From Shigella phage SSG23: a stretch of 64,000 nt of DNA. A program made the position numbers and the translations under genes. Below the pieces are notes generated by a model. It ran no database searches. It saw only the letters and a list, made by a program, of their open reading frames with translations, and was not told where the DNA came from. Shown in pieces: positions 2,272 to 62,512 of the stretch (position 1 is its first letter; the number at the start of each line of letters is the position of its first letter). The DNA lies in sequence record PQ351811. One strand, given 5' to 3'.

Positions 2272-3297
2272 ATGAAAATTTTGCTTTTGGGTGATCTGCA
2301 TACTGGTATCGGTGGCGATGATCCGTGGGTGCATGAGTATATTTTAGACACGATCAAGAAAGCGGTTGATTATTCTAAAGAAAATGGTATTAAGACATGG
2401 ATTCAAACAGGGGATTGGTTTGATTGCCGCAAGGCGATAACTCATGAAACCATGAAGTTTAACCGTACTAAGGTCATCCCATTACTGGAAGAGGCTGGAA
2501 TTACTTGTTATATCACGGTCGGGAATCATGATATGTTTAAACGAAACAAGATCCAGCCTAACGCACCGCGTGAAGTGTTAAGCCAGTATGATTGCATTAA
2601 GGTCATCGATAAGCCGGAAACAGTTACCTTTGATGGTGTATCGTTTGATCTGTTCCCGTGGTTTTGTGATGATAATAAATCAGAGGTTTTAGAGTTTATT
2701 CAAAATTCATTCAGCGAATATTGTGTAGGCCATTGGGAATTGTCTGGTTACTATTTCTATAAAGGTCTAAAATCCGAAGGTTATAGCGCGGACTTCCTCA
2801 AGAAATACCGTGAAGTGTTTTCCGGTCACTTTCATACTATCAGTGATGGCGGTAACGTAACGTATATTGGCACACCATACACACTAACGGCGGGTGACGA
2901 AAACGATCCGCGTGGTTTTTGGGTATTCGATACCGATACACACAAAAAAGAGTTTATCCAGAATGATAAAACATATCATGTGCGTATCACTTACCCGTCA
3001 GATGATAAAATCGACGTAGAACGCTATAAGGGGCTTAGTGTGCGTCTTATCGCAACGGTCGCTGATAATGGGTTAACTAAGTTAGAAAGCGCGTTAGAAG
3101 CCGTTGTGCATAAGCTAAAAGTGGTCCATAAGCTGGAGAGTAGCGCATCACAGGAAACAGGTGTTATTGAAGTTAAAAGCACTATTCAGATGGTCTATGA
3201 ATATCTGGAAGAACAAAACCTAGAACCGGAAGAACTTGCGGCAGTTAAGCGCATCTCTGATGAACTTTTAGCCGAAGTAAATAGCGCAAAAAGTTAG
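2272..3297 (+). CDS. 47: recombination endonuclease subunit gp47 (Mre11/SbcD-like)
   Basis: Calcineurin-like phosphoesterase motifs (LLLGDLHTG, GDWFD, GNHD); 341 aa versus T4 gp47 339 aa; followed by gene 46. Confidence 0.9.
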   Translation: MKILLLGDLHTGIGGDDPWVHEYILDTIKKAVDYSKENGIKTWIQTGDWFDCRKAITHETMKFNRTKVIPLLEEAGITCYITVGNHDMFKRNKIQPNAPREVLSQYDCIKVIDKPETVTFDGVSFDLFPWFCDDNKSEVLEFIQNSFSEYCVGHWELSGYYFYKGLKSEGYSADFLKKYREVFSGHFHTISDGGNVTYIGTPYTLTAGDENDPRGFWVFDTDTHKKEFIQNDKTYHVRITYPSDDKIDVERYKGLSVRLIATVADNGLTKLESALEAVVHKLKVVHKLESSASQETGVIEVKSTIQMVYEYLEEQNLEPEELAAVKRISDELLAEVNSAKS

Positions 3298-3326
3298 TTG
3301 ACGCGGGGAGAAATCCCCGTTATACT
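3298..3326 (+). promoter_or_regulatory. sigma70-like early promoter with spacer hairpin (PeSL-like)
   Basis: TTGACG, 17-nt spacer containing CGGGGA-GAAA-TCCCCG hairpin, TATACT. Confidence 0.6.
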
Positions 3327-3350
3327 CTCTAAAAATTGATGGAGGTTATT

Positions 3351-3602
3351 ATGATTACTGATGCACTGAAAGAATTTAACGCAAGTTTAGAGAAGTTCAC
3401 TAAGATCCGAGTTTTTGAGGTTGTTCGGAATGGTCAACATATGCTATCCTTCCGTTCTAACTACGGGATGTGGACACATGACGAAATCCCGTTTGATCGT
3501 GATAATATCACTAGACTGGAACTAGCAACCATTGTATCCCGTAAGATTGCTGATATTACCCAGAATGTTATTGCGCGTGGGTCTATGGAGTCTGTACGAT
3601 GA
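3351..3602 (+). CDS. hypothetical protein
   Basis: ORF with GGAGG Shine-Dalgarno before ATG 3351; preceded by promoter-hairpin at 3298. Confidence 0.4.
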   Translation: MITDALKEFNASLEKFTKIRVFEVVRNGQHMLSFRSNYGMWTHDEIPFDRDNITRLELATIVSRKIADITQNVIARGSMESVR

Positions 3603-3916
3603 AAACACTTGCACAAAAAGTAATGGAATTTAATGCAGCGTTGCCTATGTTCGCTCGACGTAAGGGGATCTCCGTTGATGTATGGTATTCCAAAGAGCAT
3701 GAAGAAGTTCGGATGATGCTCGAAAAGCGACTCACTGACACTACCGTTAAGTGTAAGATTCGTTCTATTCCTCGCGAGGAAATAGAATTTGATGAAAGCT
3801 ATTACTTTACGCTGCGTCATGTGCTGAAACAAGCAATGGATGAACTTTTAGAAGACCTGAAACAATATGAGATTGAAGGGGGAACATATTATGAATATGA
3901 CTATGGTCGAGGCTGA
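3599..3916 (+). CDS. hypothetical protein
   Basis: ORF with ATGA overlap to the upstream gene. Confidence 0.4.
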   Translation: MKTLAQKVMEFNAALPMFARRKGISVDVWYSKEHEEVRMMLEKRLTDTTVKCKIRSIPREEIEFDESYYFTLRHVLKQAMDELLEDLKQYEIEGGTYYEYDYGRG

Positions 3917-53928: not shown

Positions 53929-54197
53929 TGAAAATAACCATTATTCAATTATGGTCGGCTACCAGTGAAAACTACGCAGTAGCCGTAGATTATTACGGTT
54001 TACAATATCTCTATGATGAAGCGAGCGCATCATGGCTTCCGGTGCAAGAAAATAGCGATATCTCAAGACCTGCTACTGTATTCGATCCGGGCGTTGTCTT
54101 TATCAATATTGACGAGACAGTAGCAAAACTGCGTAAGAAAGCAATCAATAAGAAAAAGGTGATGTGGGATGAAAGAATATTTGAAACTATTGCGTGA
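53928..54197 (+). CDS. hypothetical protein
   Basis: 89-aa ORF between frd and td. Confidence 0.4.
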   Translation: MKITIIQLWSATSENYAVAVDYYGLQYLYDEASASWLPVQENSDISRPATVFDPGVVFINIDETVAKLRKKAINKKKVMWDERIFETIA

Positions 54198-55401
54198 TGT
54201 TCTTGATAATGGCTGGCCTCGTGAAGACCGAACGGGGGTAGGTACGCTCTCTAAATTCGGCGCAGAGATGCGAATTGACTTAAGCAAGGGTTTCCCCTTA
54301 CTGACAACTAAAAAGATGGCTACAGCCTCTGTAATTGGCGAGTTGCTATGGTTTATGGAAGGGTCGCTGGACCGCCGTCGCTTACAGGAAATTACACGCG
54401 GTAAATTCGATGACGAAGCCTTTGATATTTGGCGCGGTAACTGTCTTGATATGAAAGAAAAGAATCCTTTGCGATTCAACGGCTATAATGTTGGCAATAT
54501 GTATGGTATGGCGTGGCGACGCAAGCCGATTCATCCACACGGTGAAATCAAAATTAAGCGCGTTAAGAGCAAATATACACATACATTTAAGCACCCGTGG
54601 GTAGAAGACTTTACGCCAACCAACGACACAGAAGACCGTTTATGTGCTATCTGGCGTGGTATGCGTTATGAAGAGTTTGATTCTGAATATAATCAATTCT
54701 TAGTAGCAGACCACTGGAAGACTCAATCCAATTTTGTTAATGATGCATACTGCTTGTGGGGATTCCAGGAATGGGTAGATGATGGTTATTTCGGTTATCT
54801 GCTTGATAGTGATTATCTGGGTGGGGATATGTTCGCACCGGATACCACAATCTTTGTTAATATGGACGTAGACACATCAAGCCCTAAAGACGATGAAGAA
54901 TATATCTATCGCCCGAAGATTTGGGAAGACCAGTTACAAAACGTGATTGAACAAATTAAAAATAATCCAACGGATCGCCGGATCATTATTGACTCATGGA
55001 ACGTACAAGGAACACATAATGCTGTATTAGGTGTATGTCATCCTTTCGTGCAATTCTACGTCAATGAAGGTAAACTGTCCTGTATGTGGTTTCAGCGAAG
55101 CGTAGACAGCTTTTTGGGCTTGCCCTTTAACGTCGCCAGCTATGCGCTGTTAACTCACATCATAGCGAAAATGTGCGACCTTGAGGTTGGCGAACTGATT
55201 TTCTCCGGCGGAGATACTCACATTTACAAAAACCACTTTGACCAAGTTATGGAGCAATTAAACCGTGTTCCGTTTGATAAACCAACAATTGAGTTGCCGG
55301 AATTTAAATCTTTAGATGAGGTATTGACAAAAACTCCGAAAGACTTTAAAATTCACAACTATCAAAGCCACCCGGCAATCACCGCTCAAATGGCAGTATA
55401 A
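54169..55401 (+). CDS. td: thymidylate synthase with a large internal insertion
   Basis: ThyA motifs (DRTGVGT, GELLWF, DSWNV, GVCHPFVQFYV, FQRSVDSFLGLPFNVASYALL, GGDTHIY); 410 aa versus about 264-286 for E. coli and T4. Confidence 0.85.
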   Translation: MKEYLKLLRDVLDNGWPREDRTGVGTLSKFGAEMRIDLSKGFPLLTTKKMATASVIGELLWFMEGSLDRRRLQEITRGKFDDEAFDIWRGNCLDMKEKNPLRFNGYNVGNMYGMAWRRKPIHPHGEIKIKRVKSKYTHTFKHPWVEDFTPTNDTEDRLCAIWRGMRYEEFDSEYNQFLVADHWKTQSNFVNDAYCLWGFQEWVDDGYFGYLLDSDYLGGDMFAPDTTIFVNMDVDTSSPKDDEEYIYRPKIWEDQLQNVIEQIKNNPTDRRIIIDSWNVQGTHNAVLGVCHPFVQFYVNEGKLSCMWFQRSVDSFLGLPFNVASYALLTHIIAKMCDLEVGELIFSGGDTHIYKNHFDQVMEQLNRVPFDKPTIELPEFKSLDEVLTKTPKDFKIHNYQSHPAITAQMAV

Positions 55402-55437: not shown

Positions 55438-55740
55438 ATGAAAATATGCCGCGTTGTAAACAAGTACAATAGCGATTTTGATGTTAATATTCAGCGTGGT
55501 ACTATGTGGGGAAATCCATACACCGCCAAAGAATACGGACGAGAGAAAGCTATTGCATTATACAAAGAGTGGTTGTATAATAAGATTCGAAATGGTGAGA
55601 TAACACGAGCGCATTTAGAAGTATTAAGACATATGCGCTTAGGTTGTACTTGCTACCCTAAGAAATGCCACGGTGAAGTATTGGCGGATCTCGTTAATAG
55701 AGTTTTCGGCGATACTCCAGAAAATACGCTTGATATATGA
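55438..55740 (+). CDS. DUF4326-like protein
   Basis: WGNPY and LGCTCYPKKCHGEVL resemble the DUF4326 signature; family assignment is from memory. Confidence 0.4.
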   Translation: MKICRVVNKYNSDFDVNIQRGTMWGNPYTAKEYGREKAIALYKEWLYNKIRNGEITRAHLEVLRHMRLGCTCYPKKCHGEVLADLVNRVFGDTPENTLDI

Positions 55741-55751
55741 AGTGAGGTAAT

Positions 55752-57995
55752 ATGATTAAAAATGTTGTTAAGTCTTCCGGTCTGACTGTTCCGTTTGAAA
55801 AAGAAAAAGTAATGAAAATTCTGGAAGCGGCAGCCGAAGGTCATAACGTTGATCCATATGAATTGTTTGATATGGTTGAACCGCTTCTGACAGAAGGTAT
55901 GTCTACCAACGATATCCAGAAAGTATTGATTAAGGTCGCCGCAGATAACATTACTGTAGAAACACCTGATTATCAATATGTAGCAAGTAACCTTGCAATG
56001 TTCGCGCTTCGTAAATCAGTATATGGTCAATTCCAACCGATTGATTTTTACAGCCATATTGAGCGTAATATTGCAACCGGAAAATATGATCGCGAAATTC
56101 TGCAAAAGTATTCCCGTGAAGAAGTGGAATATCTGGAGAAATTCATCGATCATAAACTTGATTTTAAAATGACCTATGCTGGTGCGATGCAGTTAAAAGA
56201 GAAATATCTTGTTCAGGATCGCAGCACTAAGAAAATCATTGAAACACCGCAATTTGCGTATATGCTGATCGGTATGTGCTTACATCAAGAAGAGACAGAA
56301 AATCGACTTGAACATGTGATTGATTTTTATAATGCTGTTGCGAATAAGCAAATTTCTCTGCCTACTCCGATTATGGCGGGTGTGCGTACCCCGACACGAC
56401 AATTTAGTTCGTGTGTGGTGATTGAAAGTGATGACTCATTGCAGGGCATCAATGAAACAGCAAATGCAATCATCAAGTATATTAGTAAGCGTGCTGGTAT
56501 CGGCATCAATGCTGGTATGATTCGCGCGGAAGGATCTAAGATCGGGCATGGTGAAGTTCGTCATACTGGCGTTATCCCGTTCTGGAAACATTTTCAGACT
56601 GCCGTTAAGTCATGTTCACAAGGCGGTATTCGTGGCGGGGCAGCGACTCTCTATTACCCAATGTGGCATTTAGAGTTTGAAAGTCTTATTGTGTTGAAGA
56701 ACAACAAAGGGGTAGAAGATAACCGCATCCGTCATCTTGATTACGGCGTACAGATTAATAACCTGATGGTAGAGCGATTCCTTAAACGCGATTACATTAC
56801 TCTGTTTAGTCCAGATGTTGCGGGTGGCTTGTTGTGGGATCTGTACTTCCGAGATGAGGAAGGATTCCGCCAGCTTTACGAAAAACTGGAAAAAGATCCG
56901 AGTGTGCGTAAAACTCGTGTTAAAGCCGAAGACCTGTTTTTAGCGGTGGCAATTGAACGTTTTAACACTGGTCGAATCTATCCAGCGTTCACAGACAACA
57001 TGAACAATCACGGGGCGTTTATTCGTAATGTAGCACCGATTAAACAATCTAACCTGTGTTGTGAAATTGCTCTGCCGACAAAACCGATGGGTCGTGATGA
57101 TTCAGAGATCAGCCTATGCACTTTGGCAGCATATGTTTTAGGTAATTTCGATATCGAAAACATGGAAGAAGTAGAACGCATTGCTATGGTTATGGTGCGT
57201 GCGCTTGACAACTTGTTAGATTATCAGGATTATCCTGTAAAACAAGCACTGACAGCCAAAAAACGTCGCTCTCTGGGTGTTGGCGTGACTAACTTTGCAT
57301 CATATCTGGCGGATAATTTCTTCACATATGAAGACGCTAACGAGTTTACGCATAAAACGTTTGAACGCTTGCAATATGCTCTGATTAAGGCTAGTGTGCA
57401 ACTGGCTAAAGAGAAGGGTGCTTGCGAACTGATGCACGAAACACGTTATGGTCGCGGTGAACTTCCTATTGACTGGTACAAAAAGACAGTAGATGAACTG
57501 GTTGATCCGGTGTATGAGATGGATTGGGAAGAACTGCGCGAAGACCTGAAAAAATATGGCATTCGTAACAGTACGCTTTCGGCGCTGATGCCTTGTGAGT
57601 CGTCTTCTCAGGTGTCTAACAGCACAAACGGTATTGAACCGCCTCGCGGGATTGTATCGGTTAAAGGATCAAAGGAAGGACAATTTAATCAGGTTATTCC
57701 GAACGTAGAGAATAATGCTGATGTTATTGACCTGCTTTGGACACTGATCAAGAAAGGTAACAAGCCTTATCTGACACTGGCAGCGATCATGCAGAAGTTT
57801 GTAGATCAGGCGATTAGTTCCAATACATCCTACGATCCAAGCACTTATAAGACTGGTAAAGTCGATATTGCTGATGTATTAGATGATATGTTGTTTGCTC
57901 AATATTACGGCCTCAAGACACTGTATTACGCTAACGTGCGTGATGGTGCTGATGGTACGGAAGACGCTAGCGAATGTTCATCTTGCAAACTGTAA
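55752..57995 (+). CDS. nrdA: ribonucleotide reductase large subunit NrdA (class Ia)
   Basis: N-terminal ATP-cone, catalytic NLCCEI and C-terminal CSSCKL tail; 747 aa. Confidence 0.95.
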   Translation: MIKNVVKSSGLTVPFEKEKVMKILEAAAEGHNVDPYELFDMVEPLLTEGMSTNDIQKVLIKVAADNITVETPDYQYVASNLAMFALRKSVYGQFQPIDFYSHIERNIATGKYDREILQKYSREEVEYLEKFIDHKLDFKMTYAGAMQLKEKYLVQDRSTKKIIETPQFAYMLIGMCLHQEETENRLEHVIDFYNAVANKQISLPTPIMAGVRTPTRQFSSCVVIESDDSLQGINETANAIIKYISKRAGIGINAGMIRAEGSKIGHGEVRHTGVIPFWKHFQTAVKSCSQGGIRGGAATLYYPMWHLEFESLIVLKNNKGVEDNRIRHLDYGVQINNLMVERFLKRDYITLFSPDVAGGLLWDLYFRDEEGFRQLYEKLEKDPSVRKTRVKAEDLFLAVAIERFNTGRIYPAFTDNMNNHGAFIRNVAPIKQSNLCCEIALPTKPMGRDDSEISLCTLAAYVLGNFDIENMEEVERIAMVMVRALDNLLDYQDYPVKQALTAKKRRSLGVGVTNFASYLADNFFTYEDANEFTHKTFERLQYALIKASVQLAKEKGACELMHETRYGRGELPIDWYKKTVDELVDPVYEMDWEELREDLKKYGIRNSTLSALMPCESSSQVSNSTNGIEPPRGIVSVKGSKEGQFNQVIPNVENNADVIDLLWTLIKKGNKPYLTLAAIMQKFVDQAISSNTSYDPSTYKTGKVDIADVLDDMLFAQYYGLKTLYYANVRDGADGTEDASECSSCKL

Positions 57996-58003
57996 AATAA
58001 GTG

Positions 58004-58032
58004 TTGACGCGGGGAGAAATCCCCGCTATAAT
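58004..58032 (+). promoter_or_regulatory. PeSL-like promoter-hairpin cassette
   Basis: TTGACG, 17-nt spacer with CGGGGA-GAAA-TCCCCG hairpin, TATAAT; near-identical to the 3298 copy. Confidence 0.65.
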
Positions 58033-58063
58033 ACAACCATCAAAAACAAATGAGGATTTTATT

Positions 58064-58231
58064 ATGACCAAATTAAAATGTGTTGCTGTAGATTTTGAGC
58101 TAGCTGATAGCTTTGTTGTCGGTGATGAATATGATGCTCGACATGATGGGACTTGCTACTACGTTAAGGATGAATACGGCGTAGAATGGGCTATTCTTCC
58201 TGATGATAAATGTTTTGAGGTTGTCGGATAA
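58064..58231 (+). CDS. hypothetical small protein
   Basis: ORF downstream of promoter-hairpin at 58004. Confidence 0.4.
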   Translation: MTKLKCVAVDFELADSFVVGDEYDARHDGTCYYVKDEYGVEWAILPDDKCFEVVG

Positions 58232-58404
58232 TGGCTACTGTATGGTTATTGATTGCAATAAGCAATTCAATGTATAATTACGGAAATATGTCAAGCATTG
58301 AATTTGCCACAAAGCAGGATTGCGTTAAAGCTCGCGAGATTATCCGCGAAGACAATAAACGCTTTATGAATCTGTATTGCATTGAAAAGCAGAAGGTGAA
58401 CTAA
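58231..58404 (+). CDS. hypothetical small protein (tandem paralog 1)
   Basis: 57 aa starting MATVWLLIAIS; TAATG junctions on both sides. Confidence 0.3.
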   Translation: MATVWLLIAISNSMYNYGNMSSIEFATKQDCVKAREIIREDNKRFMNLYCIEKQKVN

Positions 58405-58571
58405 TGGCTACATTATGGTTATTGCTTTCCGTTAGTGTCGGCGTATATAATAAAGGAACTGTTACCAGCGTAGAGTTTTCATCACATCAAAGTTGTTTTG
58501 AAGCCATGCAGGAATTGCAACAGGATAGCGAAATAAACAGAAATACTAAGTTCTTTTGTGTTAAAAAGTGA
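58404..58571 (+). CDS. hypothetical small protein (tandem paralog 2)
   Basis: 55 aa starting MATLWLLLSVS; similar layout to 58231..58404 (hydrophobic N-terminus, SIEF/SVEF, C-terminal Cys). Confidence 0.3.
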   Translation: MATLWLLLSVSVGVYNKGTVTSVEFSSHQSCFEAMQELQQDSEINRNTKFFCVKK

Positions 58572-58640
58572 TAGTGAGGTGAATTAATCCTTCTTCTGGA
58601 TACCTGATAAATAATGGTATACAGAAAAGAGGATTTATTC

Positions 58641-59288
58641 ATGAACTTACAAAAACTACACGACGCAATCATAGAAAAAGCGAAGATAAGAGGAACCGTT
58701 GAAGGATATAAGGAAACACATCATATTTTACCGCGATCTATGGGTGGCGGTGATGAAGTCGATAACCTGATTGATTTGACAGCCAAAGAACATTTTGTGA
58801 TTCATCACCTGCTAGCAAAAATTCATGGTGGACCTATGGCGCAAGCATTTGGTATGATGTGTTTGGCAAAAAATGCTAAGACCAATAAAAGAGATTATGT
58901 TGTTTCGTCTAGGGTATATGAACAAGCTAGGGTACTGATATCTGAACAAAGAAAGGGTAAGCCTATGAAAGAAGAAACGCGAAGAAAGATTAGCGAATCT
59001 TCGAAAGGTGTATTGAAATCAGAAGAGACAAAAGCTAAAATGCGTAAACCAAAAACAAAGGAGCACGCGTTAAACATTTCAAAAGCTAGAATGGGAAGTA
59101 AAAATCCTATGTTTGGGAAACCATCGCCAACTAAAGGAATACCACATAGCGAGGAAATGAGAAAGCTGATTGCACAAAGGACAAAGGAAGCAACAATGGC
59201 AGATCCTTGTCCGCATTGCGGTAAAATTACCAATAAAGGCAATGCTCTACGATGGCACTTTGATAACTGCAAAATGAGGAATATGTGA
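58641..59288 (+). CDS. HNH homing endonuclease (MobE-like, free-standing)
   Basis: HNH core (ETHHILPRSMGGGDEVDNLIDLTAKEH), NUMOD3-like repeats (ETRRKISESSKG, EHALNISKARMG), C-terminal CPHCG; sits between nrdA and nrdB like T4 mobE. Confidence 0.75.
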   Translation: MNLQKLHDAIIEKAKIRGTVEGYKETHHILPRSMGGGDEVDNLIDLTAKEHFVIHHLLAKIHGGPMAQAFGMMCLAKNAKTNKRDYVVSSRVYEQARVLISEQRKGKPMKEETRRKISESSKGVLKSEETKAKMRKPKTKEHALNISKARMGSKNPMFGKPSPTKGIPHSEEMRKLIAQRTKEATMADPCPHCGKITNKGNALRWHFDNCKMRNM

Positions 59289-60455
59289 ATGGGAAATACG
59301 GTATTTAATCGTGAACATGTTGATATTATGAATGAACCGATGTTTCTGGGTAGCGGTTTAGGTATCGCTCGTTATGACATTCAGCGTCATCAAGTATTTG
59401 AAGAACTAATTGAAAAATCTCTGTCATTTTTCTGGCGTCCAGAAGAGATTTCACTTGCAACTGACCGCATTCAATATCTGAATATGGGCGATGTTGAAAA
59501 ACGTTTCTTTACAGAAAACTTGAAGTATCAGACATTACTTGATTCTATTCAAGGTCGCGCACCATCCGCAGCATTTGGTCCAATTGTATCTGATCCGACT
59601 CTCGATACATGGTTGCAAACATGGACATTCAGCGAGACAATTCATAGCCGCAGTTATACTCACATTATGCGTAACTGTTTCATTGATCCGGCTAGTGAGT
59701 TTGACCAGATCATCGATAACCCTGCTATCATGAAGCGAGCGGAATCTATCGGGCAATATTATGATGATGTTCTTTATTGGATTCGTAAGTATGAGAATGC
59801 AAAAGAAGATCTCCGCTATTGGGAAGAACGAGACGACCAGACAGCATTAGATGATGCAAGAAGAGTTTTTGAAGATACAAAACGAGATCTGATGGCGTCG
59901 ATTTATCTGTGTGCACACTGCGTTAATGCACTGGAAGCAATCCGTTTTTATGTATCCTTTGCATGTACTTTCAGCTTTGCCGAACGTGGTTTACTGGAAG
60001 GTAACGCGAAGATCATGAAATTTATTGCGCGTGATGAACAACTTCACTTAAAAGGTACACAATACATTATTCGTCAATGGCAAACGGGGGCTGACGGTGA
60101 TGAGTGGAAACAGATTGCGGAAGAACTTGAAGACGAAGCAACGAAAATCTTTCTGGATGTTGTCGAGCAAGAAAAAGAATGGGTAGACCACCTATTCGCA
60201 ATGGGGGCAATTCCTAACCTGTCACCGGAAATTCTGAAAACCTATGTAGAATACCTGGCAGATTCCCGTATGCGTGCTGCCGGACTGAAAAGCCCGTTTA
60301 GTGTTCGTCGTCATCCTTTACCGTGGATGCGTAAGTGGTTAAACTCTGACGAAGTTCAAAACGCGGCGCAAGAAGTAGAGATCATGTATCTGGTATCTCA
60401 GGTTAATACCGATTTAACAGACGACGACTACAACCGATTCGGGAAATATCTATGA
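59289..60455 (+). CDS. nrdB: ribonucleotide reductase small subunit NrdB (class Ia)
   Basis: Di-iron/tyrosyl radical motifs (FSETIHSRSYTHI, ASIYLCAHCVNALEAIRFYVSFA, ARDEQLH); uninterrupted 388-aa ORF. Confidence 0.95.
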   Translation: MGNTVFNREHVDIMNEPMFLGSGLGIARYDIQRHQVFEELIEKSLSFFWRPEEISLATDRIQYLNMGDVEKRFFTENLKYQTLLDSIQGRAPSAAFGPIVSDPTLDTWLQTWTFSETIHSRSYTHIMRNCFIDPASEFDQIIDNPAIMKRAESIGQYYDDVLYWIRKYENAKEDLRYWEERDDQTALDDARRVFEDTKRDLMASIYLCAHCVNALEAIRFYVSFACTFSFAERGLLEGNAKIMKFIARDEQLHLKGTQYIIRQWQTGADGDEWKQIAEELEDEATKIFLDVVEQEKEWVDHLFAMGAIPNLSPEILKTYVEYLADSRMRAAGLKSPFSVRRHPLPWMRKWLNSDEVQNAAQEVEIMYLVSQVNTDLTDDDYNRFGKYL

Positions 60456-62050: not shown

Positions 62051-62512
62051 ATGATTAATGAGCTAATAGAAAACTATGGATTCGTTAAATATTCATGTTT
62101 AGAGTGTAAAGATGGTGATGTGATTCTACCGCCTCAGAAGAACCGTTTAAATGTTCTTTACGCTATTGTGGTTGATGATGAACTGGTATATATTGGTCAG
62201 ACTGTTAATCTAAGAAAGCGGATCAATTATTACCGGACTAGCATTAACAGACAGACACCAACGGCGGATACTCGCAAGAGTAAGAATATTCATAAGGCGC
62301 TAGAGGAAGGGAAGACAGTAACATTCTATTACCGCCAGTGCTTTGAGTTGTACATCGAGAATCCAACGGGTAAGGATATTATAAGCACTGCCGATATCGA
62401 AGAACCTGTTTTGATCACCAAATTTAAACCAGAATGGAACACAAATTATGTCAACAAAAGAAAACAACAAAAAAGTTTTAGCATTGTTCAAAAATCTGAT
62501 GACACTATGTGA
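62051..62512 (+). CDS. GIY-YIG nuclease domain protein
   Basis: LYAIVVDDELVYIGQTVNLRKRINYYR is a GIY-YIG motif; only 153 aa; 3-prime end overlaps the gene 63 start by 65 nt. Confidence 0.55.
   Translation: MINELIENYGFVKYSCLECKDGDVILPPQKNRLNVLYAIVVDDELVYIGQTVNLRKRINYYRTSINRQTPTADTRKSKNIHKALEEGKTVTFYYRQCFELYIENPTGKDIISTADIEEPVLITKFKPEWNTNYVNKRKQQKSFSIVQKSDDTM

Follow-up and report, generated by a model that had tools for sequence, protein, structure and literature searches.

The open reading frame at 58641-59288 of the window, the 64,000-nucleotide stretch of Shigella phage SSG23 DNA (PQ351811) analysed here, encodes an HNH protein of 215 residues. It is highly probable that this protein is a free-standing homing endonuclease of the MobE clade, that its gene is carried on a 712-bp cassette seated on the nrdB start, that it homes as T4 MobE does, and that it is probably translated late. 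The evidence comes from the anatomy of the gene, the exact boundaries of the insert, a presence/absence polymorphism, purifying selection, a linked nrdB haplotype and a predicted leader hairpin. That the enzyme cleaves DNA, where exactly it would do so, and that it is translated only late are predictions by analogy.

The endonuclease gene and its protein

Shigella phage SFHK24 (PQ351812.1; Krischvirus, RB49-like, Straboviridae) matches the window with 100% identity. The endonuclease gene lies in the following neighbourhood.

54169-55401, td
55438-55740, DUF4326 gene, homologue of T4 nrdA.1
55752-57995, plus strand, nrdA, ribonucleotide reductase large subunit (Pfam ATP-cone, Ribonuc_red_lgN and Ribonuc_red_lgC, E = 1e-127)
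58064-58571, three small ORFs between nrdA and the endonuclease gene
58641-59288, plus strand, endonuclease gene of the MobE clade, HNH, 215 aa (ATG 58641, stop TGA 59286-59288)
59289-60455, plus strand, nrdB, 388 aa, uninterrupted, host gene and predicted target (Pfam Ribonuc_red_sm, profile positions 9-276 of 281)

A Shine-Dalgarno sequence, AAGAGGA (58627-58633), lies 7 nt before ATG 58641, and this codon corresponds to Met1 in all aligned homologues. An alternative in-frame ATG at 58614, which serves as the start in some annotations, has no Shine-Dalgarno sequence. The gene has already been annotated as a 'homing endonuclease' in SFHK24 (XHY53466.1) and in JSE (EpJSE_00237, ACL78186.1). 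These annotated genes are the same gene as that of the window, with 96.8-100% nucleotide identity and the same junctions. JSE was reported to have HNH genes of the mob-like kind, which are missing from RB49 and phi1 (Petrov et al. 2010).

The earlier note had read nrdB as an uninterrupted gene, and this reading is correct. nrdB contains no intron, since a single 388-residue ORF spans the whole Pfam model. The gene 3' of nrdB is polynucleotide kinase/phosphatase-like. Two paralogous small ORFs upstream of the endonuclease gene (58231-58571) are deleted in JSE, FL15 and AV108 and kept in the window, phiS and PTE-Eco09. A GIY-YIG ORF at 62051-62512 was considered as a second homing endonuclease and rejected, because its match is to phrog_1111 and its synteny that of T4 denA (endonuclease II). 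An insertion in td contains no intein or known domain in a Pfam search.

The protein is sequentially composed of a catalytic core, a repeat region and a zinc knuckle.

58707-58808, plus strand, HNH (beta-beta-alpha-metal) catalytic core, residues 23-56, YKETHHILPRSMGGGDEVDNLIDLTAKEHFVIHH, assigned from conserved residues and from profile and fold matches
58947-59171, plus strand, NUMOD3 repeat region in three stretches, presumed DNA-binding module (Pfam NUMOD3, E = 2.6e-9)
59208-59270, plus strand, C-terminal CxxC...HxxxC zinc knuckle, residues 190-210, CPHCGK...RWHFDNCK

Among 50 aligned homologues, E25, H27, H28, H51 and H55 of the core are invariant and N42 is nearly so. The PHROGs profile phrog_655, 'homing endonuclease', matches the protein with E = 1.8e-55. 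An AlphaFold2 model with a mean pLDDT of 91.3 contains a beta-beta-alpha element made of strands 25-28 and 43-46 and helix 48-62. The general-base His, the Asn and the metal-binding His typical of HNH nucleases are present in it. In the PDB, a profile built from the 50 homologues matches HNH motifs from EcoKMcrA, from a group II intron maturase and from Cas8-HNH (E = 6e-4 to 2e-3), and a single-sequence search gives marginal HNH matches only (E = 0.02-0.05). The low scores of the fold searches are due to the small size of the domain. NCBIfam yields only sub-threshold matches, to the IscB HNH region and a group I intron endonuclease model. The profile searches, proposed earlier as a check of the HNH fold, therefore support it, as do the fold searches, but the Pfam HNH model by itself does not: PF01844 scores 15.3 bits, under the gathering cut-off of 21.4. 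The orthologues T4 MobE (24.6 bits) and Mosigvirus LF82-35 (23.5 bits) pass this cut-off, so the low score reflects a shortfall in sensitivity and not a loss of the motif. With all evidence pooled, the HNH assignment, and with it the claim of a free-standing HNH endonuclease gene, is sound.

The NUMOD3-like repeats of the earlier note are borne out, and NUMOD3 is the sole Pfam domain of the endonuclease above threshold. The C-terminal zinc-binding cysteine pair was described correctly but incompletely. C190 and C193 are invariant among the 50 homologues, and so are H206 and C210. On this pattern the predicted zinc site is a CCHC knuckle rather than a cysteine pair alone. The region also has weak matches to zinc fingers and zinc ribbons. 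The NUMOD3 repeats and the knuckle presumably function in DNA binding.

A tblastn search of 50,697 phage records found relatives of the protein in 1,153 records. The best matches outside Krischvirus, in T4, HY03, slur11 and Mosigvirus LF82-35, share 48.7-51.6% identity over the full length and all adjoin nrdA. T4 MobE, encoded by a gene of 232 aa between nrdA and nrdB, is 48.7% identical over the full length. Relatives with 48-58% identity are flanked by nrdA and nrdB in LF82-35, in Acinetobacter phage Morttis and in metagenomic loci L017 and L104. Locus L105, also metagenomic, at least abuts nrdB. Relatives that reach no more than 43% identity have different genomic neighbourhoods. The gene is thus assigned by these comparisons to a position-specific MobE clade, because its closest relatives occupy the nrdA-nrdB slot and the more distant ones sit elsewhere. 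In IMG/VR, a single-protein query returned only two distant fragments. A query with the MobE-clade alignment returned 80 loci, all of 46% identity or less, which are other Mob-family genes and were left out of the target and leader analyses.

The position of the gene matches that of T4 mobE on one side only. The slot abutting the 5' end of nrdB is the same, as had been claimed, but the gene is not directly beside nrdA. It starts 646 nt past the nrdA stop codon, and three small ORFs intervene.

Many phage HNH proteins are not homing enzymes (PMC3592412), and the protein might have another job, such as one associated with packaging, and lie beside nrdB by chance. This has a vanishingly small probability. 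The HNH core lacks the flanking CxxC pairs described in that paper for the terminase-associated class, and it is joined to a NUMOD3 module as in homing endonucleases. In addition, the packaging genes are far away, all close relatives are found in the nrdA-nrdB slot, and the gene is present in a minority of genomes that are otherwise 96-98% identical.

Boundaries, distribution and selection

To define the junctions, the empty genomes RB49, Makalu_001 and Delraymugoa were aligned to the window and JSE.

58574-58589, plus strand, remains of the old nrdB translation start, with ribosome-binding site GTGAGG and a start codon killed by the change of ATG to ATC (58587-58589); left junction at 58589
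58589-59300, plus strand, insert of 712 bp, composed of a leader, the endonuclease gene, and the new translation signals of nrdB (ribosome-binding site, start codon and three extra codons)
59276-59291, plus strand, new nrdB ribosome-binding site GAGGAA, within the 3' end of the endonuclease gene, and start codon (59289-59291)

The insert replaces 4 bp (GAGC) at the nrdB start codon of the empty site. The two forms read as follows, with the exchanged part in brackets.

Empty site: ...GTGAGGTGAATTAAT[GAGC]GTATTTAAC...
Filled site: ...GTGAGGTGAATTAAT[C CTTCTTCTGG ... TGA ATG GGA AAT ACG]GTATTTAAT...

The cassette would have landed on the nrdB start codon and killed the old start by changing ATG to ATC. 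nrdB remains functional because the 3' end of the insert brings a new ribosome-binding site and start codon. The N terminus of NrdB reads MGNTVFN in the window, as opposed to MSVFN at the empty site.

The element appears mobile, as the earlier note had proposed, in that the insert is precise and is carried by a minority of related genomes. Only seven records gave a full-length match (96.5-100% identity) to the insert in a BLAST search: SFHK24, phiS, FL15, AV108, two of JSE, and PTE-Eco09. The nrdA-nrdB region is matched at 95% identity or above by 53 records, and carriers account for seven of the ~53-58 Krischvirus records. The empty site is present in RB49, Phi1, ECD7, the Makalu phages, E26, JK32 and many others. 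The comparison of the nrdA-nrdB region across related phages that had been suggested therefore reveals a presence/absence polymorphism, and universal presence of the gene is refuted.

All six distinct copies of the gene are intact. Their pairwise pN/pS values are 0.01-0.19, and the variable sites at codon positions 1, 2 and 3 number 8, 2 and 32. The pattern of substitutions indicates that the endonuclease protein is under purifying selection. Synonymous divergence between the six copies reaches 0.18, which suggests a fairly long residence of the gene and weakens the case for current mobility.

This long residence is compatible with a different history, that of a stranded or domesticated remnant. 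The folded HNH protein would no longer home, the insert would be kept for the nrdB start, and the patchiness would result from recombination and vertical descent. With its old start dead, nrdB has no ribosome-binding site or start codon other than those in the insert's 3' end, so simple deletion of the insert would be harmful. A similar reason for retention has been put forward where T4 endonuclease genes contain promoters (PMC2988022). However, if the gene were kept for nrdB expression, only its last ~15 nt would be under constraint, whereas purifying selection acts over the whole protein, including the catalytic residues, and the specialised regulatory leader described below is conserved as well. 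A remnant is unlikely on this evidence, to which the nrdB polymorphism adds.

The linked nrdB haplotype and the predicted target

SNP tables were compiled for 13 genomes and then for 19. They define a block at the 5' end of nrdB that is linked to the endonuclease gene, and its end overlaps the predicted target.

59289-59421, plus strand, block at the 5' end of nrdB whose haplotype goes with the endonuclease gene (SNP tables)
59412-59447, plus strand, predicted recognition and nicking region of empty genomes, here in the presumed immune form GAA AAA TCT CTG (E42 K43 S44 L45), with the codons for FFWRPEE after it

The block comprises synonymous sites at 59309, 59312, 59333, 59354, 59357, 59360 and 59372 and a cluster at 59408-59421. 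A single haplotype, running from the insert to ~59421, is common to all six carriers whatever their backbone. The backbone of the window is of the empty Makalu/JK32 type both upstream (57878-58233) and downstream (59480-59760), and that of JSE, PTE-Eco09, FL15 and AV108 is of the RB49/Phi1 type. Five differences that appeared fixed between carriers and empty genomes among the 13 were dropped, as PHB13 and Makalu break most of them among the 19. The empty genome PHB13 has carrier-type alleles at 59309-59339, and the empty Makalu has them at 59357 and 59360.

A MobE-dependent nick was mapped in T2 nrdB at nt 122-126, in codon 42 (AAG) (PMC2790892). This codon is AAG in all T-even phages without mobE and AAA, CGG or CGA in carriers, and the DNA just downstream, which codes for FFWRPEE, was proposed to be bound by the C-terminal module of MobE (PMC2790892). 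An alignment with the nrdB of T4, LF82-35, RB9 and RB49 places codon 43 of the window nrdB at T2 codon 42. The sites compare as follows.

RB49, E26, ECD7, G2248, Phi1, Delraymugoa and kvi: gene absent, GAA AAG CAA TTG, EKQL
RB9 (T-even phage, different endonuclease in the slot): gene absent, GAA AAG CAA TTG, EKQL
All six Krischvirus carriers: gene present, GAA AAA TCT CTG, EKSL
Mosigvirus LF82-35: MobE present, GAA AAA TCT CTC, EKSL

The end of the carrier-linked haplotype falls on the counterpart of the T2 nick codon. Such an end is the pattern that would be expected for repair initiated ~125 bp from the gene, and the site comparison argues that T4 MobE and the window enzyme may share a conserved target. 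The position of this end and the occurrence of one haplotype on different backbones also speak against a remnant that no longer homes. On the other side, recombination is frequent in the first 130 nt of nrdB, as the mosaics of Makalu and PHB13 illustrate, and a remnant could have been redistributed by it.

In the preferred reading, homing by the window enzyme would proceed as follows. During a mixed infection with a gene-less phage, the enzyme would bind the conserved FFWRPEE-coding DNA of the recipient nrdB and nick or cut it at GAA AAG CAA TTG, ~125 bp downstream of its own insertion point. Recombinational repair off the carrier genome would then copy the gene and the 5' end of nrdB into the recipient. 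The variant site GAA AAA TCT CTG would protect the carrier.

The same molecular mechanism could serve another main role, either competition between phages, through marker exclusion or the partial exclusion of relatives in the same cell, or modulation of nrdB expression, with the spread of the gene as a by-product. Bacillus phage intron endonucleases exclude flanking markers (cited in PMC2988022), and the present gene sits within an essential operon and reshapes the translation signals of nrdB. But the change to NrdB itself is confined to MGNT in place of MS at the N terminus, and the sequence offers nothing that separates competition from classical homing, with which it is not mutually exclusive. 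As the main role, competition or nrdB modulation seems quite improbable.

The EKSL-type site also occurs without the gene. A 56-nt BLAST query finds it in nine gene-less records: JK32, three Makalu records, LF73P4, ELT3, two KFS-EC records and PHB13. All seven carrier records are among the 16 EKSL-type records of ~58 (hypergeometric P ~4e-5, an overstated value, since the records are not independent). The association of gene and site could be mere linkage to an older polymorphism, because about nine gene-less records share the site. The EKSL type could thus predate the gene, which would have inserted next to it by chance. Alternatively, the gene-less EKSL records could be products of short conversion tracts that stopped short of the gene, and hence be immune empty alleles. 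Entry into the backbone of the window by cleavage is complicated by the site distribution, because Makalu and JK32, the relatives of this backbone, already carry the EKSL site.

Krischvirus may even offer a natural snapshot of the homing cycle, in which a nick ~125 bp from the gene and tracts that ended short of it repeatedly yielded immune gene-less alleles. We offer this tentatively and doubt it somewhat more than we credit it. The immune gene-less alleles would then be the sites of JK32, LF73P4, ELT3 and KFS-EC and the mosaics of Makalu and PHB13. If the snapshot is real, the triplet common to these phages and the MobE carriers of Mosigvirus would imply that the cassette and the protective nrdB segment crossed genera as a unit.

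The leader, and comparison with known systems

Three predicted elements could govern the expression of the endonuclease gene.

58004-58032, plus strand, sigma-70-type promoter-like site just past nrdA, TTGACG-17-TATAAT, with a GC hairpin in the spacer (11 of 12 consensus positions)
58579-58642, plus strand, RNA hairpin in which the Shine-Dalgarno sequence (58627-58633) is paired with 58582-58600 (MFE -30.2 kcal/mol)
58606-58613, plus strand, candidate late promoter in the hairpin loop, late-promoter-like GATAAATA, one mismatch from the T4-type TATAAATA

The sigma-70-like site is a strong one, is kept in all aligned Krischvirus genomes and likely drives early read-through transcripts over the small ORFs, the endonuclease gene and nrdB. 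The predicted hairpin has a z score of -5.3, and none of 200 shuffled sequences is as stable. Its paired positions are invariant among the six carriers. Neither of the two substitutions present affects a paired position, and the T to A change at 58636, carried by JSE and PTE-Eco09, creates an additional pair. No covariation is found among the six carriers of the genus, as expected from a hairpin that hardly varies. The leaders of L017, L104 and L105 also fold into hairpins that bury the ribosome-binding site, with different arm sequences and z scores of -4.5 to -7.6.

The motif GATAAATA at 58606-58613 is the only copy in the 64 kb. At the same position in the loop, L017 and L104 have TATAAATA and L105 has GATAAATA, so that the common layout is a hairpin with (T/G)ATAAATA. 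TATAAATA itself occurs at two sites only in the window, each ~30-40 nt upstream of a large minus-strand ORF. The phage very probably uses T4-type late promoters, because both of these sites stand upstream of large ORFs as such promoters would.

On read-through transcripts from the promoter past nrdA, the hairpin would bury the ribosome-binding site of the endonuclease gene. Transcripts from a late promoter in the loop would lack the inhibitory left arm and be translatable. By analogy with the systems discussed next, the endonuclease is probably translated from late transcripts only.

A hairpin combined with a late promoter is the documented control of I-TevI, I-TevII, I-TevIII, segB and Aeh1 mobE (PMC2988022). 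For Aeh1 mobE and for I-TevI, I-TevII as well as I-TevIII, that source describes a hairpin that hides the ribosome-binding site on a long early or middle RNA and a late promoter located within the hairpin. The predicted layout in the window matches this scheme, with the difference that its motif is GATAAATA and not the consensus, and the promoter is putative. At the protein level, the mobE-type proteins of Aeromonas phages resemble the window enzyme in the N-terminal region only, as judged from the match examined, that of phage Ah1, which is 40% identical over residues 1-84.

T4 MobE, whose gene lies between nrdA and nrdB, has been described as a free-standing homing endonuclease of the HNH type (Wilson & Edgell 2009, PMC2790892), although its activity could not be demonstrated in vitro (PMC2790892). 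The window protein shares with it the HNH core, the NUMOD3 repeats and the CCHC knuckle, and the alignment includes CPHCGK...NALRWH.D.CK. The two genes also share the slot abutting the 5' end of nrdB, and a polymorphism of the same type is seen at the nrdB codon matching the MobE nick, where most empty genomes have AAG and carriers AAA or another codon.

However, the two genes differ in their expression signals and in their effects on nrdB. T4 mobE is promoterless, is translationally coupled to nrdA (UAAUGA) and has an internal terminator 27 nt into the coding region. In contrast, the window gene lies three small ORFs away from nrdA and has its own ribosome-binding site, a predicted hairpin leader and a promoter-like motif. 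A terminator scan found none near the 5' end of the coding region, and its sole match within the endonuclease gene is on the opposite strand (59199-59214). Promoterless coupling with an internal terminator is a trait of the T4 lineage and not a requirement of the protein family. The N terminus of NrdB is altered in the window (MGNT, not MS), whereas T4 retains MSTVFN. T4 nrdB is split by an intron, and nrdB of the window is not.

The locus provides a clean comparative case. Its exact junctions rebuild the start of an essential gene, a carrier-linked co-conversion haplotype appears to end at the equivalent of the MobE nick, and gene-less alleles that look immune are common. RB49-like phages are a convenient system for homing by nicking HNH enzymes and for the origin of resistant empty sites. 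T4 already provides precedents for this kind of element, for its slot and for its likely mechanism. The window gene has a slightly different junction and a different expression cassette, whose predicted regulatory leader departs from that of T4 mobE and fits the scheme of Aeh1 mobE and I-TevI.

Cargo genes around nrdA

A DUF4326 gene lies between td and nrdA (window 55438-55740); it belongs to phrog_464 and is homologous to T4 nrdA.1. The window, Makalu and E26 carry this gene; RB49, JSE, Phi1 and others lack it. It is a second presence/absence polymorphism of the operon that holds the MobE-clade endonuclease gene.

Between nrdA and nrdB, two paralogous small ORFs of 57 and 55 aa are arranged in tandem at window 58231-58571. 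Both match phrog_5579 and each has a hydrophobic N-terminus. The pair is retained in the window, phiS and PTE-Eco09, and is precisely deleted in JSE, FL15 and AV108. In Delraymugoa and Aragogtheria, a DNA methyltransferase gene is inserted immediately 3' of nrdA, a different cargo in the same nrdA-nrdB intergenic hotspot as the endonuclease gene:

L004 (Escherichia phage Delraymugoa, OR896825.1), 2817-3656: DNA methyltransferase gene

The MobE-like gene of L105, a metagenomic locus (ENA ERZ922590 contig), spans 240-896. Its start was wrongly called at 336; the true ATG at 240 yields a full-length protein of 218 aa with the N-terminus MNYTKIY. A terminator-like hairpin (GAGCCTTCGGGCTC) is located ahead of the leader.

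Hairpin and inverted-repeat elements

A near-consensus sigma-70 promoter (TTGACG-17-TATAAT) is predicted directly 3' of the nrdA stop codon, at window 58004-58035. The spacer of this promoter-like site is a GC-rich hairpin (GCGGGGAGAAATCCCCGC), and the site is conserved across Krischvirus. The element may combine a terminator and a promoter in one.

Within nrdB, the DNA encoding the conserved FWRPE (window 59429-59443, TTCTGGCGTCCAGAA) forms a perfect 6-bp inverted repeat, which was detected by the terminator scan. The repeat falls inside the stretch of nrdB proposed as the MobE binding site (PMC2790892).

Thymidylate synthase and the GIY-YIG ORF

The thymidylate synthase encoded at window 54169-55401 is 410 aa long. 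It aligns to Pfam in two stretches, split at profile positions ~109/110 by an insertion of ~135 aa (residues ~116-253), in which Pfam identified no domain. The long form is also found in the other Krischvirus records for which td length was seen (406-410 aa; 410 aa in RB49).

Immediately upstream of RNA ligase 1, a GIY-YIG ORF (window 62051-62512) resembles a seg-type homing endonuclease. Its phrog_1111 match and its synteny argue against that assignment, the synteny being that of T4 denA (endonuclease II).
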